Notes: generated by a model not told the origin, from the letters alone. Positions 4,119 to 61,721 are shown, counted from the first letter of the stretch. The stretch: DNA of 64,000 bases from an uncultured Hormoscilla sp. (GCA_963921275.4 OZ001293.3:2784001-2848000), one strand, 5' to 3'. A program made the numbers and translations.

Positions 4119-4134
4119 AATCTCTTGACCTCCC

Positions 4135-5083: not shown

Positions 5084-5086
5084 TAT

Positions 5087-5204: not shown

Positions 5205-5232
5205 TATACAAAGGATCTAACGAGAGAATGGT

Positions 5233-5943: not shown

Positions 5944-5984
5944 CGCGTTTCCTCTGTTATCTGGATCTAAATTTTGACATCATA

Positions 5985-7283: not shown

Positions 7284-7306
7284 TTATACGATCCTCTTTA
7301 GATGTT

Positions 7307-13275: not shown

Positions 13276-13423
13276 CACGCATTTTCCTCCTATGTTGTAG
13301 GTAGTATTTCCCTCTTCTTTCTGTCACCTTACCCTGTTAGCTAGCTTACCCTGGCGATCTCTTCTCCCAGGCTAACACTTCTGTCCGCAATAGGATCAAA
13401 TCTGACCCTATTATTGTATTTTG

Positions 13424-31911: not shown

Positions 31912-33303
31912 GTGAGAGAATTTAGATCAGGTGTACCTCTGCTTCCAGCATCTATCCAACTGCGGCGATATCAGCAAGAAGCCGTAAACAGTTGGTTTGC
32001 TAATCGAGGACGGGGTACGCTGAAAATGGCGACGGGAAGTGGGAAGACGATTACGGCACTGGCGATCGCCTCGGAATTATACCAAAAGATTGGCTTACAA
32101 GGGTTAATTGTAGTCTGTCCCTACCGCCATCTTGTTTCTCAGTGGGCGCGAGAATGTGAGAAGTTTGGTTTAGAACCAATCTTAGCTTTTGAGAATGTTC
32201 ATAATTGGCAGAGTCAACTCTCCATGCAGCTGTACAATCTCCATGGGGGCAATCATCCCTTTGTGACTGTTATCACTACTAATGCTACTTTAAGTAAAGA
32301 CGGGTTGCAATCCCAGTTGAGCTATTTTCCCGAAAAAACTCTGATTATTGGGGATGAAGCCCATAACTTGGGATCGCCGAAATTAGAGGAGAGTTTACCT
32401 TGTAACATCGGGTTGTGTCTGGCTTTGTCGGCTACGCCGGAAAGGCGTTACGATGAGTCTGGGACTGATGCGATATTAGATTATTTTGGTCCGGTTTTGC
32501 CCCCAGAACTGACCTTGGCAGATGCAATAAATCAAGGGGCATTAGTCCGCTATCTTTATTATCCAGTTTTGGTGCCCCTCACGGATGATGAAGCCTACAG
32601 CTATGCCCAGTTAACTACTAAGATCGGGTGGAATTTATCTAAATTGGATGGCAATCTTGCCTTAGAAATGGCATCAAATGATGAGTTGAAAGCTTTATTT
32701 ATGCGACGGGCCCGGTTAATTGGCGCAGCGGCCAATAAGTTAGATGCCCTCAGGCAGGTGATGCGCGATCGCCTGCATACTACTCACACCTTATTTTACT
32801 GCGGGGATGGTGGGACCGAAAGCTCTATGTCGCGGCGCAGCAGTCGCCAACTCACAGCTGTAGCGCGAATTTTGGGAGGAGAATTGGGCTATCGGGTAAA
32901 TACTTACACGGCCTCAACACCCTTAGCAGAGAGAGAAAAGTTGCGCCAACAATTTGAAAGCGGGGAGTTGCAAGGTTTAATTGCTATTCGCTGTTTAGAC
33001 GAAGGAGTAGACATTCCCGCCATTAGAAATGCGATCATTCTGGCCAGCAGCAGCAACCCGCGCCAGTTCATTCAGCGGCGGGGACGAGTTTTGCGCCCGC
33101 ACCCTGGTAAGGAACGGGCGACTCTATTTGATATGATTGTGAGGCCGCCAGAGCTGGACCGCAAGACCTGGGATGTAGAACGTAACCTGCTGCACAAGGA
33201 ATTGCGCAGGTTTGTGGAATTTGCCGATTTGGCAGATAATGCAGAGGAGGCGAGAGCAAAATTGCTCGCACTTCAGAACAAATATGAATTGTTTGATGTT
33301 TGA
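31912..33303 (+). CDS. Superfamily II helicase (often annotated as dnd-associated restriction protein)
   Basis: MATGSGKT, DEAH, LSATP, LDEGVD and QFIQRRGR. Confidence 0.9.
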   Translation: MREFRSGVPLLPASIQLRRYQQEAVNSWFANRGRGTLKMATGSGKTITALAIASELYQKIGLQGLIVVCPYRHLVSQWARECEKFGLEPILAFENVHNWQSQLSMQLYNLHGGNHPFVTVITTNATLSKDGLQSQLSYFPEKTLIIGDEAHNLGSPKLEESLPCNIGLCLALSATPERRYDESGTDAILDYFGPVLPPELTLADAINQGALVRYLYYPVLVPLTDDEAYSYAQLTTKIGWNLSKLDGNLALEMASNDELKALFMRRARLIGAAANKLDALRQVMRDRLHTTHTLFYCGDGGTESSMSRRSSRQLTAVARILGGELGYRVNTYTASTPLAEREKLRQQFESGELQGLIAIRCLDEGVDIPAIRNAIILASSSNPRQFIQRRGRVLRPHPGKERATLFDMIVRPPELDRKTWDVERNLLHKELRRFVEFADLADNAEEARAKLLALQNKYELFDV

Positions 33304-33312
33304 TGTCCGTTT

Positions 33313-33510
33313 TCATCTCGTTCCCAGGTTCTACCTGGGAATGCTCTCGGGAGGCTCTGCCTCCAGTCCCAGCAGTAGGAGGCTCTGCCTCTGCTCATCT
33401 CGTTCCCAGGTTCTACCTGGGAATGCTCTCGGGAGGCTCTGCCTCCAGTCCCAGCAGTAGGAGGCAGAGCCTCCTACTGCTGGCATTCCTTGACAGAGCT
33501 AGGGAACGAG
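33313..33510. repeat. Tandemly duplicated REP-like element (82-bp period)
   Basis: tcatctcgttcccaggttctacctgggaatgctctcgggaggctctgcctcc occurs twice. Confidence 0.9.
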
Positions 33511-33539
33511 GAAAAATCTTAAATCCAAAATGGTATGAT

Positions 33540-33791
33540 ATGGAGAGGACATTTGACTATTCAGAGGGTTTTCCAGAAGTTGTTATCTCAACTGTTTTAG
33601 CTGAAAATCGTTCGGACTATAATCAAAATGCGGGTCTCAAGGAGGTGCAAGAGCCAATCGTTAGTGCTGTGCCGGAAGTCCGCAAAATTATTGAGCGGGT
33701 CTTGGAGCTGGAAAAAGATAAGCTCTATATGAAGGTTCCCAAATATATTAATGATGATATCCTGCAAATTGTTAAGGAAGAAGTGCAATGA
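33540..33791 (+). CDS. Small protein coupled to the SMC-like ATPase
   Basis: 83 aa; its stop overlaps the ATPase start (ATGA). Confidence 0.7.
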   Translation: MERTFDYSEGFPEVVISTVLAENRSDYNQNAGLKEVQEPIVSAVPEVRKIIERVLELEKDKLYMKVPKYINDDILQIVKEEVQ

Positions 33792-35854
33792 GGTTGAGGT
33801 CGATTATACTCTGTAACTTTCGTCAGTTTTATGGCAAGACTGAAGAAATTTTTTTGGCTAGCGGTGCTACGAATATTACGATCATTCACGGCAATAACGG
33901 GGCGGGGAAGACCACCCTGCTGAATGCTTTTACCTGGGCCTTGTACGAGAAGTTCAGTGCGGCTTTTACTTCTCCCCAGCAACTGGTGAACAAACGGGCC
34001 CTGCATGAAATTAAATCAGGTAAACAGGTTGAATGCTTGGTGGAAGTTGCCTTTTATCATGATAGCAGGCGCTATCGGGTCAAGCGCATCTGTCGCGCCT
34101 ATAAGAAAATGAATGGCATTGAATACAGTCCGACAGAGTTGTCGATGTGGGTGGCCGGAGATGACGGACGCTGGATGCCTACTCATCAAAACCCGGAGGA
34201 TATTATCGGACGCATTTTACCCCCCAGTTTACATCAGTATTTCTTTTTTGATGGAGAGCGCATAGAGCATATTTTTCGGGATAATCGGAAAACGGAAATT
34301 GCTGATGCTACTAAGGAGTTACTGGGTGTAGAGGTGTTTGATCGGGCCCTCAGGCACCTGAAGGCTGCTAGCAAAAGCTTGGAAGAAGAATTAGGAAACC
34401 TCGGGGATCCGCAAACCCAAAAGCTGCTGCAAGATAAGCTGAAATTAGAAGAACAGGGCGATCGCATCAGCAAGCGGCAATTGGAAATTGCTCAGGAGTT
34501 AGAAAAGCACCAGGAATTAAAAAGAACCATTAACAGTCGGTTACTGGAGCTAAGTGGTGCGAAGGAGTTACAAGACCGGCGTGCTAGCCTAGAAGCACAA
34601 GAAAAGCATCTCCGCGAACAGTTGAAACAGGCGAAAGTAGGGATCAAAAGAGCGATTAATACTAAAGAATACAGCTTTTTGCTATCAGAGGCAACGGCGG
34701 AATTTAGAACAATAGTCGAGCAACTGCGGCAGAAAGGAGAGTTACCGACGGGAATTACGCAACAATTTGTCCGGGAGTTACTCAAACAGCAGCGCTGCAT
34801 CTGCGGTGGGGACTTAAAAGAAGGCACCCATGGCTTCGATACGATCCAATCATGGATAGAGAAAGCGGGAATTGCCGATGTAGAAGAAACAGCCATTCGC
34901 ATGAGCGCCCAAATAGAAGAAATTGACAAGCAGGCTCCCGAATTTTGGCGAGAAGTGGACAGACAGCAAGGGAATGTCAAGCAATGGCGGGCGGAACTTT
35001 CGCGAGTGGAGACGGAGATGGACAATTTGAAGAACAAGCTGAGAACGAACCCCAATGAGAATATTCAGCAGTTGCAACAGCGCTTGGATGAAATTGAAGC
35101 CAAAATCAGTCAATTGCAAAGAGAAACGGGAGCCAACCACCATAAGCTAGATAAGATTAAAGCGGACATTGAGGTCAAGGTCAAGCAGATGGCCAAGCAG
35201 CAAACGAATGAGCAGAAGCAAGCTTTAGCCCAGCGACGGGTGGAAGCGACGGTGGACGCGATGAAGCGGATCTCGGAAGTTAAGAATCGTCTAGATAAAC
35301 AGTTTCGCTGGCAATTGGAACAGCGGGTGCAAGAGATATTCAGTCAAATTTCCTTTACTCCCTACATTCCCAAGCTGTCTGAAAAATACGAACTGACCCT
35401 GGTGGAGAATACAACTAAGTTAGAAGTACCCGTGGCCGCCTCTACGGGAGAAAACCAGATTCTCAGCTTGTCATTTATTGGCGGGATTATCGATCGGGTG
35501 CGGGAGTGGAGTAAAAGCAAGATGCACATGGGACCCGATAGTAGCACATTTCCGATGGTCATGGATTCGCCCTTTGGCAGTTTGGATGAAATCTATCGCC
35601 GCCAGGTAGCTTCATCTCTGCCCCAATTAGCAAATCAGCTAGTAGTTTTAGTCACGAAAACCCAGTGGCGGGTGGAGGTCGAAGAAGAAATGACTCCTAG
35701 AATTGGCCGGGAGTACCTGTTGGTATATAATTCGCCGAAACCAGATTGTGAGGAAGATAGCATCCAGTTAGGGGGAGTGAGTTATCCTTTAGTCAGACGC
35801 AGTCCGAACGAGTTTGAATATACTGAGATCGTCGAGGTAGAACGTCATGGTTAG
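33788..35854 (+). CDS. SMC/Rad50-like ABC ATPase with CxC hook (DndD-like)
   Basis: NFRQF, GNNGAGKTT, FFFDGE, CICG, STGE and MDSPFGSLD; long coiled coil. Confidence 0.9.
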   Translation: MRLRSIILCNFRQFYGKTEEIFLASGATNITIIHGNNGAGKTTLLNAFTWALYEKFSAAFTSPQQLVNKRALHEIKSGKQVECLVEVAFYHDSRRYRVKRICRAYKKMNGIEYSPTELSMWVAGDDGRWMPTHQNPEDIIGRILPPSLHQYFFFDGERIEHIFRDNRKTEIADATKELLGVEVFDRALRHLKAASKSLEEELGNLGDPQTQKLLQDKLKLEEQGDRISKRQLEIAQELEKHQELKRTINSRLLELSGAKELQDRRASLEAQEKHLREQLKQAKVGIKRAINTKEYSFLLSEATAEFRTIVEQLRQKGELPTGITQQFVRELLKQQRCICGGDLKEGTHGFDTIQSWIEKAGIADVEETAIRMSAQIEEIDKQAPEFWREVDRQQGNVKQWRAELSRVETEMDNLKNKLRTNPNENIQQLQQRLDEIEAKISQLQRETGANHHKLDKIKADIEVKVKQMAKQQTNEQKQALAQRRVEATVDAMKRISEVKNRLDKQFRWQLEQRVQEIFSQISFTPYIPKLSEKYELTLVENTTKLEVPVAASTGENQILSLSFIGGIIDRVREWSKSKMHMGPDSSTFPMVMDSPFGSLDEIYRRQVASSLPQLANQLVVLVTKTQWRVEVEEEMTPRIGREYLLVYNSPKPDCEEDSIQLGGVSYPLVRRSPNEFEYTEIVEVERHG

Positions 35855-36320: not shown

Positions 36321-37286
36321 ATGGTTAGTGCAGAATTGACTGTGGAACATGTGGTGACGGATACTTGGGTGCAGGCTAGCTGGGAATAATTTATGGCGCT
36401 AGCTGATAATCCAGCTTATAATAAGGGGAGGTTCTATTACGATCAGGGTGACATGAGAATTGAAATGTCACCAGTAGGCTATAGTCATGGTCAGGATAAT
36501 GGGGTAGTATACTATATATTGCTCCTTTATGCAACGATCGAGAATATCCGGATTAAAGGAGTGGTAAACACCAGTTTGAAAAGAAATGTAAGTTTCCTTA
36601 CACCGACATGGACAAATACCTATGGGAGCTGCTATGGCAATGGGCAAAAAGAAGGCATCCCAACAAAACGGGCAAATGGATTGCCAGTAAATATTGGGCC
36701 ATAACCGGGAAAGACCGGTGGAGGTTCACGGGCAAATCAAAAGAAAATGGAGAAATAAAGCTAAACCGGCACTCTGAAACTGAGATAATCAGACACACAA
36801 AGGTAAAAGGGACAGCTAGCCCGTTTGACGGTAACCTAGTCTACTGGAGCCAGAGATTAAGAAAGAGCCCGGACGTAAGCACGAGAGTGATTAACCTACT
36901 CAAGAGGCAGGAGGGCAAGTGCCAGCATTGCGGACTAACGTTTAAGAACGGCGACAAATGGGAAGTGGACCACATTCTGCCAACCTCACTGGGAGGAAAG
37001 GACTGGTACTCCAACCTACAGTTGCTACACGATTACTGCCATGATTATAAGTCTGCCAGGGATGGCAGCAAAGGCCGTATCCATGACAAGGATGACGAAA
37101 CTGAGGAGCCGGATGAGGTGAAAGTCTCACGTCCGGTTTTGAAGACGAGTCGGTACGGTGACGTACTGGCTTAGTTTAATAACTTTGAACCGCCTGCTTT
37201 GGTGGTGGAAAATGCAGCATCTTCTCTTAGGGATGATTTGGGACGGAAGCGGTTACTATAGGAAGGGTTGGGAATGCAAGAATATC
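36321..37286 (+). pseudogene. Uma2-family endonuclease interrupted by a group II intron fragment
   Basis: WVQASWE*F...MRIEMSPVGYSH, then PPALVVE...DDLGRKRLL*..LGMQEY after the intron. Confidence 0.7.
36587..37180 (+). mobile_element. Group II intron 3' fragment (maturase C-terminus, HNH, D5/D6)
   Basis: WAKRRHPNK and WEVDHI; D5 gagccggatgaggtgaaagtctcacgtccggttt; ends gtttaat at 37180. Confidence 0.9.
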
Positions 37287-40336: not shown

Positions 40337-41813
40337 CTACTCTGCGAGAATGTTGAACCTCTGACGATAGTTGGAAAATTTGTCGTTCACCACCTTAGCA
40401 TCGAGTCCAAACTGCTCCAGGGAGTATCGATGAATGCCATGTTTGTGCTGTTGATTGGAGCTGAGCCATCCCTTGATGTTTTCTTCCATAGTCAGAGTAA
40501 AGTCGTAGCCAAAATACTCGTATATTTGACGTACAGTCGCGATCGGGTCTTGCAGGAGGTCGCTGTATTAGACATCGTAGAATTGGCCTCGATCTGCGGT
40601 CTCTCTTACTTTCATTCCATGCTCCATTCCATTCGCCAATATATTGAGGCACTCCTCGCCTAAGGCTTTGAGATCCACATGATTAGTAAAGAATCCGCGA
40701 CCTAAAGCGAAGAAACTGCAAATAGATGGCAGCATCTTTAGCGGATCGCGGTGTGTTTGAATGATACGAGTATCTGGGAAAACTGTCATTAGAGCATTCA
40801 GACTGTATAGGTGTGTGGGTGCTTTGAGAAGCCAGCGATCGCGCCTTACGCGCCACCCTAAGAGTTGGAGTTGCTGCCGAGAGTATCGGTAGGAAGCAAT
40901 CATATCCTGCTTCTCCAGCCAATCCCCATAGGACGGCAAGTTAGCTTCAATCATAAACCAGTAGCTAGCAAACCCATGGGCCAATAGCCTCTCGCATTCT
41001 TCTGGTCCTGTGGGATTGAACGTATGGGCAACAGCCCGCTTGGTCTTGCCGTTGACCCATTTGACATACTGTTGTGTTGCTCGGATCCGGGGGTCGTTTT
41101 CACAGGTTTGAGAGTCTGGCGGAGGCGAAGGACTCATGACTTCCCATAGGTGTAGCCACCGACAAGTCGGATCTTGAGACAAAAGGTTATGAAGTAATGT
41201 GGAGCCAGTTCTGGGTAATCCTAGGATAAACAGCGGTTAGATAATCGGCACCTCTAGAGCGTCGGTCCAGTAGAGGGGGTTGACAAAAAAAGAAAATGTG
41301 TATATGCCCGCTCGCCCGTTCAGTAGAACAGATTTTGGATAAAATCATGATGTCCAGAGGGAGTGAAGGCCAGATATAAATACGAGAATATACTTATTTT
41401 TCGGACATACACAGTAGTTGAAATTTGTCAAGTATTATTAATGGACCGACGCTCTAGGATTTCGGGGTAGCGTTTGAAATCGGACTGCATCCGCGATTTA
41501 CCAACAGGCGAATGCAGGTCTTTCGCATCTGCGATCGACCAAAAAAGCTCAAAGAAGCTTCTCGATCCCGGGATGCGATCAATATGCGCAGGGGTATTCA
41601 AAATTCTTCATCTCCCCAGTCAGACAAATTGGTTTGGCGTTGTGCCGCCGACAAAAGCGACTCTTCTGTCAGGGTCGCCAAGGGCAGGCCAATTCTGCTC
41701 AGGCTAATTCCGGCCCAGTCGAGTAAGCGATACCATAAAGAGCGATGCTGCTACGCAGCCGCTACGCGAACGGACTGCTCAAAAGTGGATAGTGAATTTG
41801 TTATATCGGCCAT
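40337..41813 (-). pseudogene. Sulfotransferase interrupted by stops and a MITE
   Basis: PLFILGLPRTGSTLLHNLL, WLLKAP and IIQTHRDP. Confidence 0.85.
41254..41457. mobile_element. MITE with ctagagcgtcggtcca ends (copy 2)
   Basis: Perfect 16-bp terminal inverted repeat including CTAG. Confidence 0.88.
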
Positions 41814-42096
41814 CAGTTTTGCTTCCCTTTTGCTTCCATCTGCCCCTGCTGCTGCGCTGCCCCACGGTAGATATTGATTTCTACTCCGTTGTTCGTAGCA
41901 TCCGCTAGCTTTGCCAACGCCTGCGATTGCGCAGCACGCTTGCGCGATTGCATCTCGTGGGCATCGAGGCGATCTGGTTCTACCTCCAGGATAACATCAT
42001 TTAACTACTGAAAATATTTTTAATCTGGTGGGAGCATGTCAACTTTTATCGTGAGTAATTGCTGATATCCCAACCTGTCAACTCCACCTACACTTG

Positions 42097-43596
42097 TCAT
42101 TTGGGCCTTTTAATTCCACCACTTCGCTTAACCTCAAATCCATAACGATAAATATCAGGCATATTAATCCGCCCATCAGAACGGCTTTCAATAATTCCCA
42201 GTTGCAGTAAATACTGCAACAATTCTGACGGGTTTAATGTGGGGGGCTGTTTCTCTGGTTTTTCACTCCATTCTGTGGATTTCAGTTTGTTCGTCAAATC
42301 AGTTTTTGCTATAGGTACTTTGATACCTTTTAAGCTGGACTTTATATCTTCTAGCCAAGGATATTCTTCATGTGCTAATTCTCTAATTCTATCTTTTGAC
42401 GTATCCATTAGTGCCCCTTGCAAATCCGAAGGCTCTAGTAATTTTTCAGTCATACTTTTTGATTCTATTTTTGATAAACTTCGCTCCCCAGCCAAAGAGA
42501 ATAGCTTTAAAAATGAGCGTGGTGCCATTCTACCTCCAGCATCTTTAAGGTGGTTAGGAATCCAACGATATGTATACCCCTTCCTGGGGTTGCTACCCAT
42601 GTATTTACCCACCATTTTTTCCATGAGTAATTCAAAATTTGATTCATCCAATTTTGGTAGTATACCCAGTGACGGATGACCTTCAGAGATTAGACCCGGA
42701 ACATCACTTAAATAATCGGTCATTTCCTGTCCAGAGTTGGCTAAGCGCTTCACAAGTAACTGATACAACCATGGCGCCTTCCACTCCAGACTAATCTGGT
42801 ATCCTTGTAGCTTAGAGGCATCAGGAAATCCTAAAAAATCCTCACGAAACAGGTCTGTACGTAAAAAAATCTTTGGTCGTATCCGTTCCCAACGACGCCA
42901 CCGATCCAGCCAAAATGCCAACAGTTCGCGAATAGGGGCAGCCAGTTCGAGATAAGATAGCACTAGCCTATCTAGTTCATCATATATGACAAATAGCCAC
43001 CGATCGGTTTCGATCAATTCGGAGTCTAACCGATCCAGAGCATAATTCAGCTTTTCCAGATTCTGGCGGGCAAGTGGCAACCAGTCTGATAGCAAAGGTA
43101 GCTGGTTAGCCAAAGCCGTGCGAATTGCCTCTGGTATCCCATCACATATACTATTTAGTGCTTCTTTTTTTTCTTGAAGCATTACCCCCAACATCAACCC
43201 AATCCAGAAAGTACGCCAATCGATTCGATCTGCATTTTTCATCCCTGCTTCTACAGTCTCTGGCGTGGGGAATATTTTGCCCTTTTGTTTTGTCCGGCCA
43301 TATCCCGCTATCCATATTGTACTATCCAAAGAGGGTAAAGCCCTAATTTGCATATTTTCTACCAGCGTTTTGCGTCCGTCTCTATTTCCTAGTAAACGGA
43401 ATAATTCTGTCTTGCCAACACCGCGTCCTCCTAATATCAGTAATGCGTCCAGTTCCAAAACTCTGCGGTAATCCGGTACGGGGAGAAAGTTTTTCAGGAA
43501 AACTGTCTCATTATCGCTCTCATGCTCTGCTATTCCCCGTCCTGGTGCAATAGCAACCATTAGTTCCAGCAGTTTCTTTTTATCATAGTCTCTCAT
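42097..43596 (-). CDS. STAND-like P-loop ATPase (Sll1717-like), 499 aa
   Basis: GGRGVGKT Walker A, VIYDELD Walker B, KIFLRTD and PRSFL; wHTH-like C-terminus; AAGGAGG RBS; ATGA overlap with the upstream gene. Confidence 0.8.
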   Translation of the reverse strand: MRDYDKKKLLELMVAIAPGRGIAEHESDNETVFLKNFLPVPDYRRVLELDALLILGGRGVGKTELFRLLGNRDGRKTLVENMQIRALPSLDSTIWIAGYGRTKQKGKIFPTPETVEAGMKNADRIDWRTFWIGLMLGVMLQEKKEALNSICDGIPEAIRTALANQLPLLSDWLPLARQNLEKLNYALDRLDSELIETDRWLFVIYDELDRLVLSYLELAAPIRELLAFWLDRWRRWERIRPKIFLRTDLFREDFLGFPDASKLQGYQISLEWKAPWLYQLLVKRLANSGQEMTDYLSDVPGLISEGHPSLGILPKLDESNFELLMEKMVGKYMGSNPRKGYTYRWIPNHLKDAGGRMAPRSFLKLFSLAGERSLSKIESKSMTEKLLEPSDLQGALMDTSKDRIRELAHEEYPWLEDIKSSLKGIKVPIAKTDLTNKLKSTEWSEKPEKQPPTLNPSELLQYLLQLGIIESRSDGRINMPDIYRYGFEVKRSGGIKRPK

Positions 43597-44963
43597 GTTA
43601 CCACCTCCTTTTTCAATTTCCGCCCAAACATTTGGCAAAGTCGTTCTGCTATATTTTCATAGGGTTTGCCAGTCAACAGGCTCACAATCCCAGCCCTGGC
43701 TGACTCGGAACTTGAATTTTCCGAGAATAAAGCAATTTCTCTACGCAGTGTACTCTGCCAATCCAAGACAACTGGCCAAAAAGGAGCATCCGGATCGTTA
43801 GAGTTCGGAATATCATCACTTTCATAGTAGTAGTTTTCTTGAAAAACTGTATAGGCTCGATCGCGAAAATCTTGCAATTCCTGCTCTCTGGTAGGCATTT
43901 CTAACCCAGGAGCCATAGCATGGCACAGCAGCACGGGAAGCGGTTCTCGTGCCTGAGGTCTTGCTAGGGCTAGGCGACGAATAACGTGAGTTATTCCGGC
44001 CCAGCTTTGGCGAGATTGGGTGCCAAATATAACCGCCCCATGTGCCAAAGAAGCGATCGCCAATCCGCCAATATCGTGGAATCCTGCTCTAGCATCTAGC
44101 AGGATAAAATCTAAGGGCTTAGCTGCACCTTGCAGTTCCTTCAGCATTTCCCCCAGCGTTTCAGGTACTTGATTATTGACCAGGTTCTGGAAATCCAATC
44201 TCGCCAACTTTTCCAGATATTGCTCGTTTACAGTTCCGGCTGGCAGTAAACGCAGTGTTTCCCCCCGATCGCCCAGCAGTATTTCATCGTTGATCGATCG
44301 TAAATGGGTGCGTAACCGCCAATTACTCTTTTGAATTTGTTTCTCTAACAGGTAATCAATAACACCAAACATATCTGAAGTATCTGAAAAAAAGATTGTG
44401 GATAGACCAGGAGCCTCAAGATCCAAATCTATTATCGCCACCCGATGACCTTGACGAGCCAAGGTAAGGGCTGTCCCCACCAAGGCCGTTGTGCGACCAA
44501 CACCCCCCTTAAAGGAAAAGAATGCTACAATTGCAGGTTTATGTCCCCGATCGACTAAATCCTGTGCCCAAGGTGGATTACCTGCATCTTTATTAGTCCA
44601 TGCTTGTTTAGCAAGGTGGCGTTCTAGTATATACCAGTCAAGTTTATTACCATCATCCCAGTCTGCGCGAACCCTCTCGGAAGTAATGACCTCAATCAAG
44701 GCTTGATAACCATCCTGTTCGCCTTCTGGCAACCAGATATCTTCGCCATAGTAGGGACCGAGTTTTTGGGCAAGGCTGTCATGCAAATTAGCTATGGCTG
44801 TATCTTCCAGAGCCCCCACCGGTTCCAAGAAAACCCTAATCTTACCTAAAACATCACGGATTATGGTTATAGACTGAAGATGCTGTGTCAGTTGGCTCTC
44901 TATGGTAGGTTCCCGAAAGCATTCGATTACCTTATCAAAGGTTTCACTGAAGGTTATGTCCAT
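43593..44963 (-). CDS. ParA/MinD-like ATPase, KGGVGR variant, with a ~140-aa N-terminal domain
   Basis: FFSFKGGVGRTT, IDLDLEAPG and ILLDARAG. Confidence 0.85.
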   Translation of the reverse strand: MDITFSETFDKVIECFREPTIESQLTQHLQSITIIRDVLGKIRVFLEPVGALEDTAIANLHDSLAQKLGPYYGEDIWLPEGEQDGYQALIEVITSERVRADWDDGNKLDWYILERHLAKQAWTNKDAGNPPWAQDLVDRGHKPAIVAFFSFKGGVGRTTALVGTALTLARQGHRVAIIDLDLEAPGLSTIFFSDTSDMFGVIDYLLEKQIQKSNWRLRTHLRSINDEILLGDRGETLRLLPAGTVNEQYLEKLARLDFQNLVNNQVPETLGEMLKELQGAAKPLDFILLDARAGFHDIGGLAIASLAHGAVIFGTQSRQSWAGITHVIRRLALARPQAREPLPVLLCHAMAPGLEMPTREQELQDFRDRAYTVFQENYYYESDDIPNSNDPDAPFWPVVLDWQSTLRREIALFSENSSSESARAGIVSLLTGKPYENIAERLCQMFGRKLKKEVVT

Positions 44964-44966
44964 CCT

Positions 44967-45398
44967 CTAAAGTTCCCTACTTGAAATTCTCCCGTCCAGA
45001 ACCAGTCTGGTAACAATCTCCCTATAGATCTCATTTGCTCGCGATACCGCTGCGATTGCTTGATTCTCTGTCCAAAGGCCAGACTGGGCATAGCGTCGTT
45101 CTGGATGATTTTGAGCCAGAACTGTTTCAGTTGTCCGTGCAGTTGCTGGTTGCATGTCCAGCACCGGATACATAACTTTTAGCCGCGACATAGCCTTGCC
45201 TTCAAGTTCTTCTAGATCGTGGCCGTATTTTTTAACTGCTGCCGGGTCTCGATCTAAGTATATCTCAACTAAGACCTTAAAGGCACATTCTACCACATAA
45301 CCCGCTAAGTAAACCGCGTTGTCCCACCGCTCAGCATTTCGTAAATTAAATGCATCATTTAAATGTCTTCCTGCTGCCTGCGAAAAAGACTCTTGCAT
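44967..45398 (-). CDS. HEPN-like protein
   Basis: AVYLAGYVVECAFK...GHDL...ERRY pattern; 143 aa, predicted helical. Confidence 0.75.
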   Translation of the reverse strand: MQESFSQAAGRHLNDAFNLRNAERWDNAVYLAGYVVECAFKVLVEIYLDRDPAAVKKYGHDLEELEGKAMSRLKVMYPVLDMQPATARTTETVLAQNHPERRYAQSGLWTENQAIAAVSRANEIYREIVTRLVLDGRISSREL

Positions 45399-48901: not shown

Positions 48902-49913
48902 ACCTAAGTTGCGACCTATTAAAAAAAATATGAATTACCCACTTAGACTTTACAGATATTTGGGATATTTCGTAGCTTTTGATACAAAATTATATTTTTT
49001 TTGTGCTAGACGGCGGGTTGGCTGTTTATAGGTTATAATGTACTAAAATAATAGTTAATTGCTGGGGGATGTAGATGATGGAAGATATGATTACAACAAT
49101 TTTTGTTCTTTGTGACGAGCTACTAAAAGCGTTAAATATAAAAGAAGATCCACAAGTAAAAATGAACAATGCCGAAGTGATGACAGTCGGATTAGTTGCT
49201 GCATATTTTTTCGGAGGACACCACGATCGCTCTTGTCAATTTATGGTCCAACACAAGTATATAAAAAATCTGTTAAGTAAAAGTAGGTTCAATCGTCGAT
49301 TACACAATATTGAGGAACCAATTTGGATGTTTTTCTTCCAAGTTATAGCTCAAACATTTAAAGAGCTCAATCCGGGTCAAGAATATATTCTTGATAGTTT
49401 CCCGGTGCCAGTATGTGATAATATTAGGATTGATAGATGCCAAATTTATAACAAGGAAGAATATCGAGGGTATATTGCCAGTAAAAAACGTTATTTTTAT
49501 GGATTAAGAGTTCATATGTTGGTAAACAAAAATGGAAAGCCAATAGAATTTTATCTAGATCCTGGTAGTTATAATGATGTTAAAGTTTTGCAATCTTTTG
49601 GCTTTGACTTACCATCAAATTCAATAGTTTATGGAGATAAAGCTTATAATGATTATCAATTAGAGGATTTACTAAAAGAGTCGTCAAGTATAATGTTAAA
49701 ACCTTTGCGAAAAAAGAACTCAAAAAGAAAAGAATCTTCTTGTTTTGAATATATACAAAAAGTAACAAGAAAACAAGTTGAAACCTGTTTTAGTCGAATC
49801 ACCAATTTGTTTCCCAAGTCAATTCATGCTGTTACATCTAAGGGATTAGAGTTGAAAATAATTCTCTTTATCATAGCTTTTTGTATCCAATTTTTATAGG
49901 TCGCAACTTGAGT
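48902..49913 (+). mobile_element. IS982-family element, apparently intact
   Basis: TIR acctaagttgcgacctat / ataggtcgcaacttgagt; 7-bp TSD TATTTTA. Confidence 0.93.
49075..49899 (+). CDS. IS982-family transposase
   Basis: ILDSFPV, YFYGLRVH, YGDKAY and RKQVET (DDE). Confidence 0.92.
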   Translation: MMEDMITTIFVLCDELLKALNIKEDPQVKMNNAEVMTVGLVAAYFFGGHHDRSCQFMVQHKYIKNLLSKSRFNRRLHNIEEPIWMFFFQVIAQTFKELNPGQEYILDSFPVPVCDNIRIDRCQIYNKEEYRGYIASKKRYFYGLRVHMLVNKNGKPIEFYLDPGSYNDVKVLQSFGFDLPSNSIVYGDKAYNDYQLEDLLKESSSIMLKPLRKKNSKRKESSCFEYIQKVTRKQVETCFSRITNLFPKSIHAVTSKGLELKIILFIIAFCIQFL

Positions 49914-54274: not shown

Positions 54275-55397
54275 ATGAGGCCGCTAGCTCAACTACGCCA
54301 GGAGTTCTTGGAATCCATAGCCGGAAAATACTTAAACGATTCTTCCCGAGAGGTCCAGAGAGTATTTATGACTAGATTCGCCTATGATAATCAGTTCAAG
54401 AAGAATGACGATCTGGCTAAAACTCTGGGAAAAGAGCCTGTCACTTTTCCCAAACAGTTGAGTGCTGTATACCAAGCGTTCGCCTTGGATGCTGGTCCGA
54501 TCGATGGTAGAGGGGCAAGAAAACAAAAGGCACTGGAATTATTCCGTTGGTTGTGGAACGATCGCTTCCCTGAGTAGCAAAAGCACCAGGGAATTGTCCC
54601 GCAAGCCGGTTCAACACAGAACGGGCATGTGGTTGGAGGATCCAGAGGGAGCAACTGAACCAAAACGCAAATTGACGATCGAGTTGCAAGAGATTAGAAA
54701 TATAGGTATGGTCAAGAGTAAGACGAAAAAGGAGCTGGTTCTCGATATCGATCAACTTACCCTGGAAGAGCTACAGGCTATTAACGAACTTCTGAAAAAA
54801 CTGGCGGGCGATGACTCAATGAAAATTGAAGGAACCAAGCAAGGTAGTGTTGTCCTAGTATTGGGAGGTTCCGAAGCAGGTCTCGATCGCCTTGAGTATC
54901 TGGTAAAATCAGGACAGCTCACGGAGTTGTTGGGAATTCCGATTAAGGAGATCCGGGACGAGAAACCGGTAACATTGAGCCAGTGGTTTCGGGGGATCTT
55001 TGAAGCTGGTTGGCAGCAGGTGGAAGATTTGCTGACTCCACAGCAGTTAAGTGCAACTGTGTGGAGCGATCGCCTGGAACGTGCTAAACTGATTAACTGG
55101 AGGGCTGACTTACTCAGTCACGCTGTTGTTTTACTCGTCAACCTGAAGCGGGAGAGCGAAGATATTGTTACTGTCAGACTCAAGCTGTATCCCACCGGCG
55201 AGGACAGTTATTTACCAGAAAATCTCCAATTGCAGGTACTGGTTGATGCCGATGGCGAGGAGGAGGTTTTTGAAGAGGTTACGGCCAGAAGTGCCGATGA
55301 ATGGATCCAATGTACGTTTGATGCCGAACCAGAAGATGAATTTACTGTTAGACTGGTATTGGGAGAGGCGATCGCCACAGAAAAATTGGCGGTATAG
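54275..55397 (+). pseudogene. HTH-like + DUF1822 protein split by a stop/frameshift near 54575
   Basis: VTLSQWF...AGWQ...YLPENLQL...WIQ DUF1822 pattern. Confidence 0.7.
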
Positions 55398-55755
55398 TTG
55401 ACAAGATGTTGTCGGATGGGTTAAGGTAATGGAAGGTAGGATTCCGTTCTCTCGTTCCCTGACTCAGGCAGGGAACGCGCATCTAGAGGCTCAGCCTCCG
55501 GAGGAAATAAACGAGAGGCAGATATGGCAGAAGATGCATTGACTGTTAGACTGGTATGAGGAGAGGTGATGGTCACAGAAAAATTGGCGATCTAGTTGAC
55601 AAGATGTTGTCGGATGCGTTAAGGTAAGAGAAGGAAAGAACGGTAGTAGGGTTGGTGAGGGGTTGGGTAAGGGGCCTCAACCCAACCGACGAGAGGGTCG
55701 TGAGACAAACCAACCGAGATAGAGAATATTATTGATAAGGGGGAAGGGGGAAGTT

Positions 55756-58127
55756 ATGGCTAAGTTGGTTAACATATATAGATGTAATTTTGACGATGGG
55801 TTCTCGGTAAGAGCAGAAATAAAGGAAAAATATGACAGATAGCCAGTCTCCTCGGAACGGGCGATCGCCTCTGACAGGGGCAGATTACCAGCAGCGCCAT
55901 ACCTGCGGGAAAAAATCGGCAACTGGCAGAACATATATCAGAAGGTAGTCTCAAAAAATTTCGATCTAAAGCGACAGGCTTCTGTTACGAATTCTAGGGA
56001 TGAAGAAAAGGCTAAGAAAAAGGCTGGTGATGATTGCAGGAAAGTGACGGCAGATTTGAAAAGTAGCTTGAATGGGTGGCTGGAAGAGCGGGAATTTCGT
56101 CCCATAGATTCGTTGTTGCGCAACCACTTAAAGGCAGATAAGGAAATTTGGGTGCTGCTGGAAACGGATAATCATTGGTTGCGAAAACTGCCTTGGCAGG
56201 AATGGACGCTAATCCGGGATTTTCCCCAGGCAGAAGTTGCCCTCAGTTCGCCTAAGTTTCAGAGAGTGAAGCAAGTAGCAGACTCCGAGTCAAAGAAGAA
56301 GACAAAAATTTTGGTAATTTGGGGATATTATAACGAAAATAAAGGAGAACCACAGGCAATTGAGGAACAAGCACGGGCAATTGAGGAACTGGCACAAAAG
56401 ATAAATGCCGAGGTTACCTGGCTACACCAACCGTAACGAAGGGATTTAGATGAACCTATGGAAAAAAAAGTGGGATATTCTATTCTATGGAGGACATGGT
56501 GACACCTCGGATAAGGACCAGGTAGGTAAAATTAGAATTAACAAAGAAGATTGGCTAAAAGTATCGGATATCAAGAATCATCTCAAACGAGCGATAGATT
56601 ATGGGTTGAAGTTGGCTATTTTTAATGCCTGCGATGGCTTGGGATTGGCATATCAGTTGGCGGATGGGGAAGATTTACATTTGCCCCAGGTGATTGTGAG
56701 GCGGGATTGGTTGCCAGTTCCTCTAGCGCCTCTATTTTTAAAGGGCGTTGCACAATTACGAGATGATGGGCATAGTTGCAGAAGTCTTAAACCTAGACTA
56801 CAAGCCAGTTTCAGTTATGTGCAAAAAAGGGCATCATCCCCAAAATGTGCAACGCCTTTTAAAGTATTTTCTGGAAGAATTTACTCAGGGCAAGTCTTTG
56901 TATGCTGCGGTGAGGGAGGCGCGGGGGCGGTTACAGATTTCCGAGGATGAATATCCCGATGAATATCCCTGTGCCAGTTGGTTGCCCGTTATTTGCCAAA
57001 ACCCGGCTGAAACTTCCCTGACTTGGCAGATGTTGGGAGGTATTCCTGCTTGTCCCTACCAGGGGTTGCGGGCTTTCGGGGAAGAACACGCACCTTTTTT
57101 CTTTGGGCGAGAGGCATTTACAGAATTGCTGGGACCAGCGGTGAGAAGAAAATCCCTAGTGGCAGTTATTGGGGCTTCCGGGAGTGGCAATTCTTCGGTG
57201 GTTTTTGCCGGTCTTATTCCTGGTTTGCGAGAGAGGGGAAATTGGCACGTTGTTTCTTTCCGTCCTGGCAAGCGTCCGTTTGAAAATTTGGCTGCGGCAC
57301 TGCAACCACTCCTGGTTCCCAGTCTCAGGCTGGGAACGGCACCAGAGGCTCTGCCTCCAGATGAGGGGAGGGGAGGCTCTGCCTCGGGAGGTGCGTTCCC
57401 AGGTAGAACCTGGGAACGAGATGGAGGAGATGGTGAAGGAAATGGATGCAGGGGAACAACAGCTTTTCTTGGATTGTTTGCTGAAAGCGGTTAAGGGTGC
57501 TGCTTGCTTTACTCTCCTGATAACGTTGCGGGCTGATTTCTATGGATATGCCATGTCTTACCGTCCTTTTGCTGATGCGTTGCAGGGTGCTTGTCATAAC
57601 CTGGGTCCGATGAAACGGGAGGAACTCTCCGATGCTATTGTTTTGCCTGCCTCAAGCTGAACGTGCAGCTTGAGGCGGGTTTGCAGGAACGCTTGATTAA
57701 TGAATTGGATGTGGCAGGTAACAATTTACCTTTGCTGGCCTTTACTTTGGAACAACTGTGGTATAAACAGAAAAATGGTCTGCTGATTTATCGGGCTTAT
57801 GATGAGATTGGCGGAGTAGAAGAGTCTCTGGGCAATCATGCGGAAAATGTTTATTTGCTGTTGAGTGAGCCCGATCGTGATCGGGCCCGGCGAGTATTCG
57901 TGCAGCTAATTCAGCCTGGTGAAGGGACGCAAGATACCCGCAGGTTGGCGACTCGCGCTGATGTGGGTGAAGAAAATTGGGATTTGGTGACGCGGTTGGC
58001 GTCACAAGAGGCGCGGTTGGTGGTGACCGATCGCAATCTTGTTTCTGGGGAAGAAACTGTGGAAATTGTCCACGAGGCGCTGATTGGCGGTTGGGAACGG
58101 TTGAAAAAGTGGATGGACGTTGAGTAA
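55756..58127 (+). pseudogene. CHAT + nSTAND1-type ATPase, multiply disrupted, repeat tail missing
   Basis: LPWQEW, GGHG, FNACDG, CPYQGLRAF, GASGSGNSS (Walker A K>N), LRADF, LPLLAF and EIVHEAL. Confidence 0.85.
56744..56856. mobile_element. 113-bp MITE (copy 2) inside the CHAT gene
   Basis: TIR GGCGTTGCACA; 8-bp TSD TTTTAAAG. Confidence 0.92.
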
Positions 58128-58140
58128 TTTGGTCGTGAAT

Positions 58141-58536
58141 TTATGGAATATCGCAGTAAAAGGATGTTGCAACTGAAACCTTATTCTCAACAAAACACGT
58201 CAGGAGCTTTTTCGTAAGCACAAAAGCATTAGTAAAGACTTCAATGAACTCAAACCCATTATTACTGGCGTGAACAATGTAGTCTGGGAGATGTTTGACG
58301 ATAGTAGGTTCTCCGCTAATAAACTGAATTTTTTTACAGTTCATATTGGCTGCTTGAGTGATGATCTCCAGATACTTTTGAGGAGATAGAATGTTCTTTG
58401 TTTCTGGATTGGGGCCTGATTCAGCGTAACAATGTACGCATTCCATGTTACACAAAGAAGTTAACTCTAGCCAAATAAAATCTAGTTCTCCTTTAATCAC
58501 AACATTTGGTAACTCTTTAATTGCAGTAACTGTCAT
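58141..58536 (-). pseudogene. Radical SAM protein, 3'-truncated
   Basis: WLELTSLCNMECVHCY (CxxxCxxC), GEP and FTN; only about 131 aa remain. Confidence 0.8.
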
Positions 58537-58570
58537 TTTTGATCTCCGTAATTGCATTACAGTGCGTCTA

Positions 58571-58870
58571 TAGCGGATTGCATTCGGATGAGGTACAGAA
58601 GAACCCGCTATCACTGGCAGTGCCAAGCAAGGGATGTATCTCAAGTGAAATCCAGAGCAGGTAGTCGCCGGTGAGCGACTGTAGGTTTGTACCTGGCGAT
58701 CGACTGTAGGTCTGCACCTCAAGTGAAACTCGGAGCAGGTAGTCGCCGGTGAGCGACTGTAGGTTTGTACCTAGTGCTCGACTGTAGGTCTGCACCTCAA
58801 GTGAAACCCAGAGCAGGTAGTTGCCGGTGAGCGACTGTACATCTGTACCTCGTCGGAATGCCAACCGCTA
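58571..58870. mobile_element. TA-flanked 300-bp MITE containing a 78-bp tandem array
   Basis: 29-bp imperfect TIR tagcgg...gaggtacaga; units start at 58641, 58719 and 58797. Confidence 0.8.
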
Positions 58871-59076
58871 TATTTCTATCTTGCTAGCCGTGTCTACTTT
58901 TGGTGGATCATATTGAGATCACTTTTGAGATCACTTTTTTCAGGTTCCAGATGATCTATAATTGATCTAAATAAAGGAACAGATGATCTTCTGTACAAGG
59001 GAGCGCTATTTTGAGGTCGGTAAAATCGCCGAAAGCATTACTATACAAGGCTTTGGTGAATTAAAAAATTTCATGA

Positions 59077-59178
59077 TAGCGGTTTTCACCCTAGTGAGGT
59101 ACATCTCTGACAGGGCACTATTGGCACAAAAACGCTGAAGACCTATTGTTATGCACATCATCAGCTTGAAAAATGCTA
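59077..59178. mobile_element. Short MITE related to 58571-58870
   Basis: tagcggttttca...gaggtaca and a degenerate inverse ...tgaaaaatgcta. Confidence 0.6.
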
Positions 59179-59262
59179 TAGTTATCAAAAAAGGTCAGTC
59201 TATCGCATCAAAACCTTGCTGAGCAAGGCTTACAGCATTAAACAGATTAAGCGAAGAAAGGC

Positions 59263-60770
59263 ATGGCAAATACTCTCAAGTTATCTGAACAGGGGTTTGA
59301 ACTGGTGGAGGCAGCGCGAAAAAGGAAGGGCTGGAATGCTCAAGAGGATAAATGGTTTTTAGAAGCTAAGGTTGGCCCAGGTACCTTGAAGCGCTTCAGA
59401 GCAAGGCAGCCAGTTCGGCGTGAGAATTTTATTAGTTTTTGCAAGGCAGTCGGAATCGAGAACTGGGAAGATGTTGCTGAAAATCCTCAACTAGCAGTAG
59501 GAGATATCAGACCAGACTTCTTCGCTTACCACAAGGCTTGGGTTGGTAGAGACTCTCTAGTAACTCAATTAAAAGAGAAGCTAGAAGACTCTTGTCGTAT
59601 ATTAATACTCCTCGGAATCACGGGAATTGGGAAAACAGCTCTGGGTGAAAAACTAGCACTCGATCTATCGGCTCTGTTCGGGGGGGATTGGAAAAACAGG
59701 TTTCGTAGAGTAAATTTCGATCACAAAATAGGAGATACTCCTAAATCTGAAGATTTTGTTGATGTCGCCAAGGGATGGTTAAAATCATGGGAATACAATC
59801 TTAATCTAGAAGATATTCAGCCAGAAAATTTACTGCAAATTTTGCTTAAACACCTAGATGAAAATATAGTTTTTATAGTAATAGATTCCCTTGAAGAGTT
59901 ACTTACTGGTAATGAGAATGAGGGTTGGGGAGATTTTGTTGATAAATGGTGGGGTATTTTTTTTCGGGCTGTACTGTCTAGGGAATCTTTTTCAAGTCGA
60001 ATAATAATTACGTCTCAGGATTTACCATCCAAAATACCTCATTCTCGCTACTCAAACTTTTATCATTGTGAAGTTATTTACGGATTAGAAAAGCCAGAAC
60101 AGGAAGCATTGTTCAAAATAACCGGGTTTGAGATTGATGATGGATCTTCAGATTTACCCATATTAATGCGATGCGAATTGGAAGTGCTTACTTAGGGCAT
60201 CCTCTTACTTTAAGGGTCATAATAGGAGAGATATAGGAGAGATATAGGAGAGATATAGGAGAGATATGGAAATCTTTTGATGGAAATGTAAATGCTTATT
60301 GGAATGAGGTTGGTAAAGTAGAAAAAGTAGAAAAAGTAGAAAAAGATGTAGCAGAAGCAAAAGAAAACCTTAAAATAGTTGGAGAGAGTGACAATTGGGA
60401 ATTACACAAATTAACAATGGTTTTGCGTAAAGTTTGCAAAGAAACGATAGGAGAAGCTTTTAAACGCCTGAAGAAATATTCGCCAGATGGGTATATGCTA
60501 ATTTGTTCTAGTTCAAAATATCGAATTCCATTCAATAAAGAAGGATTTATGATTTCGTTTATGTATCTGAAAAAGGCTTTTCTTAAGCAGGATTGTGATA
60601 GCAAACGTCAAGAAAAAACACTAAAGGATTTACAAGATCGTTACCTTGTTGAGGAGTCTATTGAAAACAACCATAAAGTTTTTGGACAGCACAATTTAAT
60701 CCGTAGTGTAGCTTTGAAATGTAATAAGCAGTTAAAAGAAGAGTTAAAAAGCAAATACAATCTCAATTAA
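59263..60770 (+). pseudogene. HTH + NB-ARC-like ATPase, frameshifted
   Basis: WVGR, GITGIGKT, IVIDSLE, IIITSQ, then GHPLTL in a shifted frame. Confidence 0.8.
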
Positions 60771-60854
60771 TATAATATGGCAAACGATCGAAGTAAAAAC
60801 TTTTTGAAAGTTTAAATATAAAGATAACCCCAGAAGAAATCTCCATAGATTCAT

Positions 60855-61721
60855 ATGAAGACTATGCTGCTGTTGAACTTAACAAAATACGCTCCACCTT
60901 CTGATGATAACTTAACAAAAGTAAACGGTTATTTGCTTTCTTTTGGCCATCTTATTGATGCAAAAGATTGGTCAAGAGCAAGGGATGTGATTAGGTTTAA
61001 GTTGAATGACGATAATCATGTAGAGTTATGCGATCAAATAGCGATTTGGGGAGAATATTCAAAGGCATTAAAATATTATGAAAAAATTCTTGGAAAGATT
61101 GATGCAGATACTGATGTTTTCTGCCTGAATGGTATGACCAATATTTACGGTAATCAAAATGAATTTGAGGAGGGAATTAAGTATGGCGAAAAAGCTTTAG
61201 AAAAAGCTAAAGAAATTGGTAATATTTATATGGCCGCACAGTTAGCATTTAACATTGCCTGGTGTTATAATTCTCGAAAAAAATATATCCAGGCTACCGC
61301 GTTATATAACGAATCTTTAGATTTTGCACGCATGTCAAATAATAAATTCGTTGAAGCTAGAGCTTTAGAGGGTTTGTCTACTGTCAACCTATATTTAAAA
61401 AATTACGATCGGGCTATTTATTATGGACATGCAAGTTTAAAATTAGCAGAAAGTTACGACAATCTTCTTGCAAAGACAAGTTCTTTTTTGATATTAGGTA
61501 TTAGTTATCTATCTAAAAACAATTATGAACAAGCAATTCAATATACTCAGGAAGGAGTCAATCTAGCTTGCCAATCTAGTGCTCCATGTAATGAAGCATG
61601 GGGTTGTAATTTTGAAAAGATCTATTTCAAAATGGAAAAATATGAAGAAGCAGAAAAGTATTTGCAGGAAAGTTTGGATATTTTCAAAGAGCTTGGTAAT
61701 TATCGTGGTCAAAGTGCTTGA
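60855..61721 (+). CDS. TPR-repeat protein, probably damaged at both ends
   Basis: Repeated A..Y...AL..A TPR patterns. Confidence 0.7.
   Translation: MKTMLLLNLTKYAPPSDDNLTKVNGYLLSFGHLIDAKDWSRARDVIRFKLNDDNHVELCDQIAIWGEYSKALKYYEKILGKIDADTDVFCLNGMTNIYGNQNEFEEGIKYGEKALEKAKEIGNIYMAAQLAFNIAWCYNSRKKYIQATALYNESLDFARMSNNKFVEARALEGLSTVNLYLKNYDRAIYYGHASLKLAESYDNLLAKTSSFLILGISYLSKNNYEQAIQYTQEGVNLACQSSAPCNEAWGCNFEKIYFKMEKYEEAEKYLQESLDIFKELGNYRGQSA

Follow-up and report, generated by a model that had tools for sequence, protein, structure and literature searches.

A HEPN, KGGVGR ParA and ORC/Cdc6-like ATPase operon of an uncultured Hormoscilla sp. as a predicted defence system of the HINPO/PDC-M28 class

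A three-gene operon was analysed at positions 42,097 to 45,398 of a stretch of 64,000 nucleotides (nt) from an uncultured Hormoscilla sp. (GCA_963921275.4, OZ001293.3:2784001-2848000); the whole stretch is referred to as the window. The genes encode a small HEPN protein (A), a ParA-like ATPase with an additional N-terminal domain (B), and an ORC/Cdc6-like AAA+ ATPase (C). Judged from its sequence, the trio is a typical member of a class that has already been catalogued and described, as PDC-M28 in PADLOC and as HINPO (HEPN, inactive nucleotidyltransferase (NTase)-ParA, ORC/CDC6-like AAA+) in a computational preprint by Li, Burroughs and Aravind (bioRxiv 10.64898/2026.10.19.760177, 22 October 2026), and it is not new. 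It is probably an anti-mobile-element system, directed against phages or plasmids, of filamentous cyanobacteria. The domain identities, the kept gene order, the tight coupling of the genes, B-C fusions, conserved NTPase motifs and a conserved His/Arg set in A were observed here. A first-pass annotation, made from the DNA alone, had put forward a defence candidate built of two NTPases and a HEPN protein. This proposal agrees with the PADLOC and HINPO predictions and with the gene order and the B-C fusions, and its functional part stays a prediction. The components are listed below with their lengths in amino acids (aa).

44967..45398, minus strand: gene A, 143-aa HEPN protein of the PA-HEPN1 / PDC-M28A type, PF05168-like
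44961..44969, minus strand: A/B junction, with the TAG stop of A (44969-44967), the spacer AGG (3 nt) and the ATG of B at 44963, read directly from the sequence
43593..44963, minus strand: gene B, 456-aa KGGVGR ParA-like ATPase with an extra N-terminal domain of ~135 aa
44559..44963, minus strand: N-terminal domain of B (aa 1-~135), a compact alpha/beta domain in the AlphaFold model
43617..44546, minus strand: ParA/MinD-type SIMIBI ATPase domain of B (aa ~140-449), ConB2 'KGGVGR' clade
43593..43609, minus strand: B/C junction, with an AGGAGG ribosome-binding site (43609-43604) 7 nt before the ATG and an ATGA overlap at 43596-43593, read from the sequence
42097..43596, minus strand: gene C, 499-aa ORC/Cdc6-STAND-clade AAA+ ATPase, Sll1717 family, PDC-M28C

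The three open reading frames (ORFs) were all located on the minus strand and were free of stop codons and frameshifts over ~3.3 kb, as had been annotated at first. The 3-nt gap between the HEPN and ParA genes and the ATGA overlap with its strong ribosome-binding site were both borne out by reading of the sequence. Translational coupling of B and C is implied by the AGGAGG site and the stop/start overlap. In the ORF listing, C extended over 42097-43638 (513 aa) from a TTG start at 43638. The ATG at 43596 (499 aa) was taken as the true start because the alignment of the orthologues begins there, with the N-terminus MRDYDKKKLLELM aligned to the orthologue consensus MSxFNKQKLLELM. Chance ORFs are excluded by the hidden Markov model E-values of 7e-13 to 1e-80 for A, B and C. 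The comparison with PADLOC, proposed along with the first annotation, assigned the three contiguous genes on one strand to the models PDC-M28A, B and C.

Gene B matched PDC-M28B over nearly the whole profile (E 1.9e-63) and the NCBIfam model 'KGGVGR-motif variant AAA ATPase' (AAA_KGGVGR; E 3.3e-55). Pfam gave only generic ParA/CbiA N-terminal matches. The variant Walker A motif, annotated earlier as KGGVGRTT, was found as FKGGVGRTT at residues 151-159. Among 100 aligned homologues, R157, D179, D181, P185 and D290 were invariant, and K152 and G186 nearly so. K152 serves as the signature lysine and R157 takes the position of the P-loop lysine; after D179-x-D181 comes P185-G186, and Walker B is represented by D290. 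Replacement of the Walker A lysine by arginine and a PG after the sensor-1 DxD are given as hallmarks of the ConB2 clade (bioRxiv 10.64898/2026.10.19.760177). The arginine in the P-loop of B suggests that NTP hydrolysis may be slow or regulated.

A structure model of B was generated with AlphaFold2 from 100 diverse homologues (predicted local distance difference test (pLDDT) 94.1, predicted template modelling score 0.92). The unexplained N-terminal extension of ~140 aa noted at first, which includes IIRDVLGKIRVF, was modelled confidently as a separate alpha/beta domain of ~135 aa. It consists of helices at residues 5-16 and 19-24, strands at 29-36 and 42-48, a helix at 54-71, a strand at 72-77, a helix at 86-96 and a strand at 109-114. 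In its core, D37 and G40 alone were nearly invariant, and no conserved acidic triad was present in the 100 sequences. Whole-model search of B with VIA-align returned, among the matches listed, ParA-domain matches only, and a search of the ESM Atlas with residues 1-135 gave no usable match. In the HINPO preprint this ParA N-terminal domain is assigned to inactive Pol-beta-like nucleotidyltransferases (bioRxiv 10.64898/2026.10.19.760177).

Gene C matched PDC-M28C over nearly the whole profile (E 9.6e-81), the NCBIfam model 'P-loop ATPase, Sll1717 family' (E 6.9e-33) and, weakly, the Pfam family ORC-CDC6-like (E 0.013). Walker A (GGRGVGKT, K62) and Walker B (VIYDELD, D206) were both conserved. 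The structure model of C (pLDDT 89.4) ended in a C-terminal winged helix and was devoid of sensor repeats. Foldseek retrieved BrxC, archaeal ORC1/ORC2/Cdc6, PABY2304, CED-4, RdrA and TnsC at E 1e-5 to 4e-3; VIA-align and Foldseek together pointed to ORC1/ORC2/Cdc6, PABY2304, TnsC, CED-4 and BrxC. On account of the matches to ORC/Cdc6, TnsC, CED-4 and BrxC, C was assigned to the ORC/Cdc6-STAND clade of AAA+ ATPases. The earlier label 'STAND-like' is approximately right; in STAND NTPases of the NB-ARC / NACHT type the NOD core is followed by C-terminal sensor repeats (TPR, WD40, LRR). ORC/Cdc6-like AAA+ proteins of defence and transposition systems (BrxC of BREX, TnsC, MuB) are near kin of C. 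Full-length orthologues of C occur in other metagenomes at 98% and 88% identity.

Gene A covered the PDC-M28A profile nearly end to end (E 7.4e-13) and matched the Pfam HEPN family weakly, under the curated cut-off (E 0.0022). The Pfam family PF05168 (HEPN) was matched at E≤0.01 by 23 of 24 aligned members of the A family (best 2e-7). D15, R24, E37, C38, K41, G59, H60, L62, P99 and Y125 were invariant in the alignment, H60 lying within a GHxL motif, and R101, R102 and Y103 were nearly invariant. A PDB sequence search with the 24-sequence profile yielded nothing meaningful; the best match was a GCN4 chimera (E 0.09).

The three-gene architecture was compared with that of HINPO as described in the HINPO section of the preprint. 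According to this section, the ParA of HINPO belongs to the ConB2 clade and carries at its N-terminus a fast-evolving Pol-beta-type nucleotidyltransferase domain that is inactive. Upstream of it stands a HEPN gene not characterised before, termed PA-HEPN1, and downstream an ORC-CDC6/STAND-clade AAA+ gene that is at times fused to the ParA gene; the systems show an enrichment among multicellular bacteria (bioRxiv 10.64898/2026.10.19.760177). The trio shares the gene order, the ConB2 ParA with Walker-A Arg and PG, the extra ParA N-terminal domain and the downstream ORC/Cdc6-STAND AAA+ gene. ParA-ORC fusions exist on both sides, and no architectural difference from that description was found. The preprint's assignment of the ParA N-terminal domain to the NTases was, however, not reproduced here. 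The named relatives of the trio are mostly filamentous cyanobacteria (Okeania, Anabaena, Dolichospermum, Microcoleus, Nostoc, Scytonema, Nodularia and Trichodesmium).

The second source, PADLOC, contains 145 untested 'phage defence candidate' (PDC) systems, which were nominated on the basis of their embedding in BREX, DISARM and type I restriction-modification (RM) loci (Payne et al., bioRxiv 10.1101/2024.01.29.577857). The label PDC-M28 is output of the PADLOC library (PADLOC-DB v2) and has 0 occurrences in the main text of that preprint. All three models were matched by the trio, which is located after an ABC-transporter operon and not inside a BREX, DISARM or type I RM locus.

The distribution of the genes was determined with C as query. 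Matches were found in 13 genomes among 41 relatives. In a sample of the phylum comprising 301 genomes, 27 contained a C-family match at E≤1e-20, and a stand-alone C of ~500 aa at E≤1.6e-60 was present in 10, this one included. Frames of ~870-930 aa with a C match at E 1e-21 to 1e-31 formed a second class. All ten loci with a stand-alone C outside this genome were searched with A, B and C by tblastn. Conservation of the three genes as a unit was found: A-B-C was present in the same order and on the same strand in 8 of these 10 loci, at 56-67% identity. In one of the other two (L013) the contig ends inside B; the second (L021) is a remnant in which residues 1-106 of A abut residues 189-499 of C and B is gone.

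Fused forms were also observed, the frames of ~870-930 aa being fusions of B and C. At locus L015, an ORF of 896 aa (4716-7406) is a B-C fusion with matches to PDC-M28B (1.3e-40) and PDC-M28C (9.4e-27), and the 152-aa ORF upstream of it matched PDC-M28A (1.3e-8). Among the best 150 B representatives, five were 907-1377 aa long. Since B and C are fused in this paralogous form, they are taken to act together (Rosetta-stone evidence). The same locus (L015, G090:C152:72000-89600) carries both HINPO forms ~2.6 kb apart, the split trio at 10028-13347 and the HEPN gene with the fused B-C gene at 4716-7875; a TnpB gene adjoins the split trio.

Contact between A and B was examined by complex prediction, which gave weak support (score 0.56 versus 0.00 for the best of three controls, no interface reported). 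Of 157 solved complexes, 116 attained the score mark, as did 2 of 215 mismatched pairs; at scores ≤0.60 it was reached by 18 of the 157 solved complexes only, and by both passing mismatches. The three runs agreed in at least 83% of contacts, and partner pLDDT was at least 62.

A different account of the trio is a selfish, toxin-antitoxin (TA)-like addiction cassette that has no role in defence and persists by post-segregational killing. A TA function has been put forward for another HEPN-ParA/Soj dyad (Anantharaman et al. 2013, PMC3710099), and the sporadic occurrence of the split form (10 of 301 sampled genomes) and insertion sites that differ between genera, with mostly housekeeping neighbours, would fit. 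The dyad, as described in that article, involves the MAE_18760 HEPN family, which keeps Rx4-6H, unlike A. The trio always has a third gene for a large ATPase, be it separate or fused, for which a simple TA pair has no use; the toxin-first order is also atypical of type II TA pairs. A pure addiction cassette is considered decidedly unlikely; TA and defence roles are not mutually exclusive. Assignment of A to the MAE_18760 family was itself rejected, as this family keeps Rx4-6H and, in the same article, has other fusions.

Two further known systems were compared. The MNT-HEPN (MntA-HepT) TA pair likewise combines a small HEPN protein with a partner that has, according to the HINPO preprint, a Pol-beta-type NTase-like domain, and A shares the NTase-associated PF05168 (HEPN-T) branch with it. 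The trio differs in that the domain of B is devoid of G[SG]...DxD, only D37/G40 being conserved, and has no profile similarity to 27 MNTs; the HEPN gene stands first, Rx4-6H is missing from A, and the trio has two NTPase modules more. ParA-HeH subtype 4, composed of a ParA, a sensor and a HEPN tRNA anticodon nuclease, has been characterised experimentally in Salmonella according to the HINPO preprint (bioRxiv 10.64898/2026.10.19.760177). Its operon, like the trio, encodes an NTPase of the ParA family, a partner that senses DNA and a HEPN effector, but its ParA belongs to clade ConB1, its sensor is HeH and not ORC-like, and its HEPN family is another one.

The defence role itself and every functional step are inferred. 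C would use its AAA+ core and winged helix to bind DNA of the invader or some other sign of infection. It would then act on B, its obligate partner, which is taken to be an NTP switch of the ParA type that dimerises or polymerises and has Arg in the P-loop. B might hold or regulate A through its N-terminal NTase-like domain. Upon activation, B would form assemblies on nucleic acid, and A would be released or activated as an RNase. A might cleave RNA by means of R101/R102 and the alternative His60, leading to shutdown of the infected cell by abortive infection or dormancy; in this way the rest of the filament is proposed to be protected.

A more specific wiring is put forward as a tentative and rather unlikely scheme, in which HINPO would be a domesticated MNT-HEPN pair under the control of two NTPases. 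The degenerate NTase-like domain would dock the HEPN-T RNase, DNA sensing by the ORC-like protein would cause dimerisation or polymerisation of ParA and thereby release of the RNase, and RNA cleavage by His60/Arg101-102 would kill the cell. Given the HEPN-T affiliation of A and the NTase-like domain of B, the two may descend from an MNT-HEPN module. The weak A-B score is compatible with docking on this domain, the interface not being located. The HINPO section of the preprint is without such wiring; it proposes nucleotide sensing by the inactive NTase domain and a back-up HEPN instead.

In the model of that preprint, ParA multimers are the primary effector, HEPN is the back-up and the inactive NTase domain is the nucleotide sensor (bioRxiv 10.64898/2026.10.19.760177). 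Applied strictly to this locus, the ORC-like protein would sense invader DNA and nucleate ParA multimers by which the invader is coated or contained. Nucleotides would be sensed by the N-terminal domain of B, and A would serve for suicide as a back-up only, or would bind RNA without catalysis. Besides being the model that Li, Burroughs and Aravind propose, it is favoured by the missing Rx4-6H of A and by the conservation of the ParA catalytic and dimerisation residues K152, D179, D181 and D290. None of the 8 complete split loci has lost A, however, which also precedes the fused form, and the A-B contact prediction is above its controls, though with weak support. It is argued that A is an active, integral component because of this retention, the invariant His60 and the near-invariant R101/R102. 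The strict model is judged unlikely to apply as a whole; nothing here separates it directly from the proposed release of a HEPN RNase.

Several results weigh against the proposed defence system and its HEPN effector. In A, Rx4-6H was absent: no His was present 4-6 residues past R101/R102 in the 24 aligned sequences. The first-pass annotation had noticed the RY in this place and had suggested a non-catalytic HEPN. The missing motif was confirmed, but the conclusion is premature, because the invariant His60 upstream of R101/R102 fits an alternative HEPN active site flagged in 2013. In the NTase-associated HEPN-T proteins (PF05168; for example AF0298), the basic residue persists without the motif His, and a His nearer the N-terminus, which is strongly conserved, was described as possibly forming an alternative active site (Anantharaman et al. 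2013, PMC3710099). For the N-terminal domain of B, hhalign of the 100-sequence profile against 27 MNT ORFs gave a match probability of 0.3%, no better than the 0.6% of the ParA-part control, a result that speaks neither for nor against an NTase fold. Around the trio, promoter-like sites (5 versus 7.8 ± 2.6 in shuffles) and terminator-like sites (4 versus 4.7 ± 2.4) were not in excess. In the literature searched, no experimental work on PDC-M28, KGGVGR or Sll1717 was found, and HINPO in the biological sense was met in a single preprint, which is computational only. The earlier description of the system as uncharacterised is thus upheld with regard to experiments; it had nevertheless been recognised, as PDC-M28 and as HINPO.

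Defence islands were also searched for, and the result adds to these points. At 9 cyanobacterial loci, 74 flanking ORFs were scanned with PADLOC at E≤1e-8. No clear island was detected; Csx3 and PDC-S03/Uma2, at one locus each, were the sole defence-like flanks. The other matches were TnsB/TnsC of a CRISPR-associated transposon (CAST; one locus), TnpB (one locus) and two methyltransferase matches that are probably false. The remaining flanks in other cyanobacteria were housekeeping genes that differed between genera and were shared within genera. At one locus (L014, G136:C56:11800-25300), a fragmented type V-K CAST-like Tn7 module (4042-6018, plus strand; TnsB in two ORFs, TnsC) runs right up to the 3' end of gene C in the trio of that genome.

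The history of the trio was assessed within the genus. The nearest named records were Hormoscilla metagenome-assembled genomes (MAGs) with 87-97% protein identity. A peptide-pattern search of genome contigs recovered only three near-identical Hormoscilla loci, the patterns being too specific. At locus L009 the trio occupies the same potC site after the same ABC-transporter genes, with 97.9% nucleotide identity over the trio. Recent acquisition, which had been considered as one reason for the intact state, is contradicted by these data: sister Hormoscilla MAGs carry the trio at this potC site too, with synonymous divergence (dS) of 0.04-0.15, so it was inherited within the genus and not recently acquired. 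A compositional sign of recent transfer was not found; GC content was 0.38-0.48 in the trio versus 0.43-0.53 in the flanks, and no sharp boundary was present.

The other reason considered at first, selection for an intact system, turned out to be weak. Two sister MAGs are frameshifted in C and one of them also in A: L009 has a 1-nt deletion near codon 336 of C, and L010 lacks 1 nt at codon 25 of A and shows a 2-nt insertion near codon 429 of C and paired 1-nt indels. These indels may be real decay or MAG assembly errors. On account of the frameshifts, the system is perhaps dispensable in the symbiont lineage, which is a further point against the defence role. Ratios of nonsynonymous to synonymous divergence (dN/dS) versus the sister MAGs were calculated by the NG86 method; the estimates are noisy at the small divergences involved. 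Values were 0.51-0.69 for A, 0.32-0.55 for C, and 0.27 for the potC control. For B they were 0.24-0.28 over the full length (two sister MAGs) and 0.43 for residues 1-174. B looks constrained like its housekeeping neighbour, A and C less so.

These data bear on the possibility that the trio is a relic without function that is heading for decay and is intact by chance. Such a relic would be in keeping with the indels in C and A of the sister MAGs, with the dN/dS of A and C, and with the broken genes around the trio, namely a sulfotransferase with a stop, split nSTAND1 and transposase ORFs, and a PbeA that is lacking its first ~240 residues. A second copy in this genome, of the fused type, is reduced to the C-like half, which survives beside a truncated CobN gene. 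The trio itself, however, has ~3.3 kb without stop or frameshift and keeps all catalytic motifs, B evolves like potC over its full length, full-length C orthologues exist in other metagenomes, and the MAG indels may be assembly errors. A relic is therefore regarded as very unlikely. That this sponge symbiont has an intact copy while relatives have decayed ones hints at a pressure from phages or plasmids that still acts on part of the lineage. The second copy (L022, G000:C1:5345500-5357500) is an ORF of 541 aa at 4843-6468 (minus strand; PDC-M28C, E 9.5e-27), and a ParE toxin ORF is located nearby.

The placement of the operon was checked as well. It had been described as wedged between potC and a dead sulfotransferase gene. 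The PotC-like permease gene is indeed the upstream neighbour, its stop being 47 nt upstream of A, and the sulfotransferase gene (40337-41182) is dead by a single in-frame stop (...QFYDV*YSDLL...), but it is located ~0.9 kb past the end of C and is not directly adjacent. The intervening ~0.9 kb (41183-42096) contains short ORFs without family match and no Rfam match. Just past the stop of C, a promoter-like TTGACA-N18-AATATT was noted on the minus strand at 42042-42013.

This position, directly after a polyamine-type ABC transporter operon with no promoter-like site between, would be compatible with a housekeeping positioning or segregation module, in which a ParA-type ATPase places cellular cargo and is unrelated to conflict. 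A partner for such a function is missing, as had been noted before: no ParB or MinE family match was found among the 46 window ORFs scanned. ParABS and MinCDE systems have a canonical KGGxGK[ST] Walker A and ParB or MinE, whereas B has R157, and this Lys-to-Arg replacement in the P-loop is the hallmark of the conflict clade ConB2. The C family is patchy within genera (any match in 4 of 10 genomes of genus g31 and 7 of 8 of genus g37), and the trio, which is tied to a HEPN gene, shows decay in relatives. A housekeeping role is thus scarcely credible.

Other conflict-related genes and mobile elements were recorded in the window. A Pbe system (PbeA, a 163-aa ORF and PbeC; 31912-35854, plus strand) is located 6.2 kb from the trio. 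PbeC (33788-35854) is complete (PADLOC E 0), and the 163-aa ORF (33300-33791) is without family match. The PbeA-like helicase (31912-33303, E 6e-158) covers profile positions 244-681 only, the N-terminal third (~240 residues) being apparently missing. A type II RM pair on the minus strand (5233-7283) comprises a REase_II-like gene (5233-5943, E 2.3e-9) and MTase_II (5985-7283, E 3.9e-127). The presence of the Pbe system and of this pair counts in favour of the defence reading. A decayed conflict cluster at 54462-61721 (plus strand) contains a TRADD-N/DUF1822 gene (54462-55397), an nSTAND1 broken into two or more ORFs (56748-57494 and 57663-58127), a weak nSTAND-like ORF (59263-60195) and a TPR protein gene (60855-61721).

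Group II intron Domain V/VI RNA matches were found at 15107-15184 (plus), 17583-17659 (minus) and 37104-37180 (plus). A reverse transcriptase/maturase gene on the minus strand is split into 18436-18978 and 16353-17645, and a lone HNH ORF (36608-37174, plus) ends at an intron 3' element. Insertion sequences are represented by two ORFs of a split ISAZ013-type DDE transposase (9081-10293, minus) and by an IS4-like DDE transposase gene (49075-49899, plus), which is situated in a low-GC patch (0.30-0.34) directly upstream of a potA-like gene.

The locus adds no new kind of system, and there is nothing special about this copy. Its value lies in being an undamaged, clean representative of a predicted immune system that is common in filamentous cyanobacteria. 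If the function of the class were established, it would tell whether partition-type ATPases act as immune switches and how filamentous bacteria sacrifice single cells.

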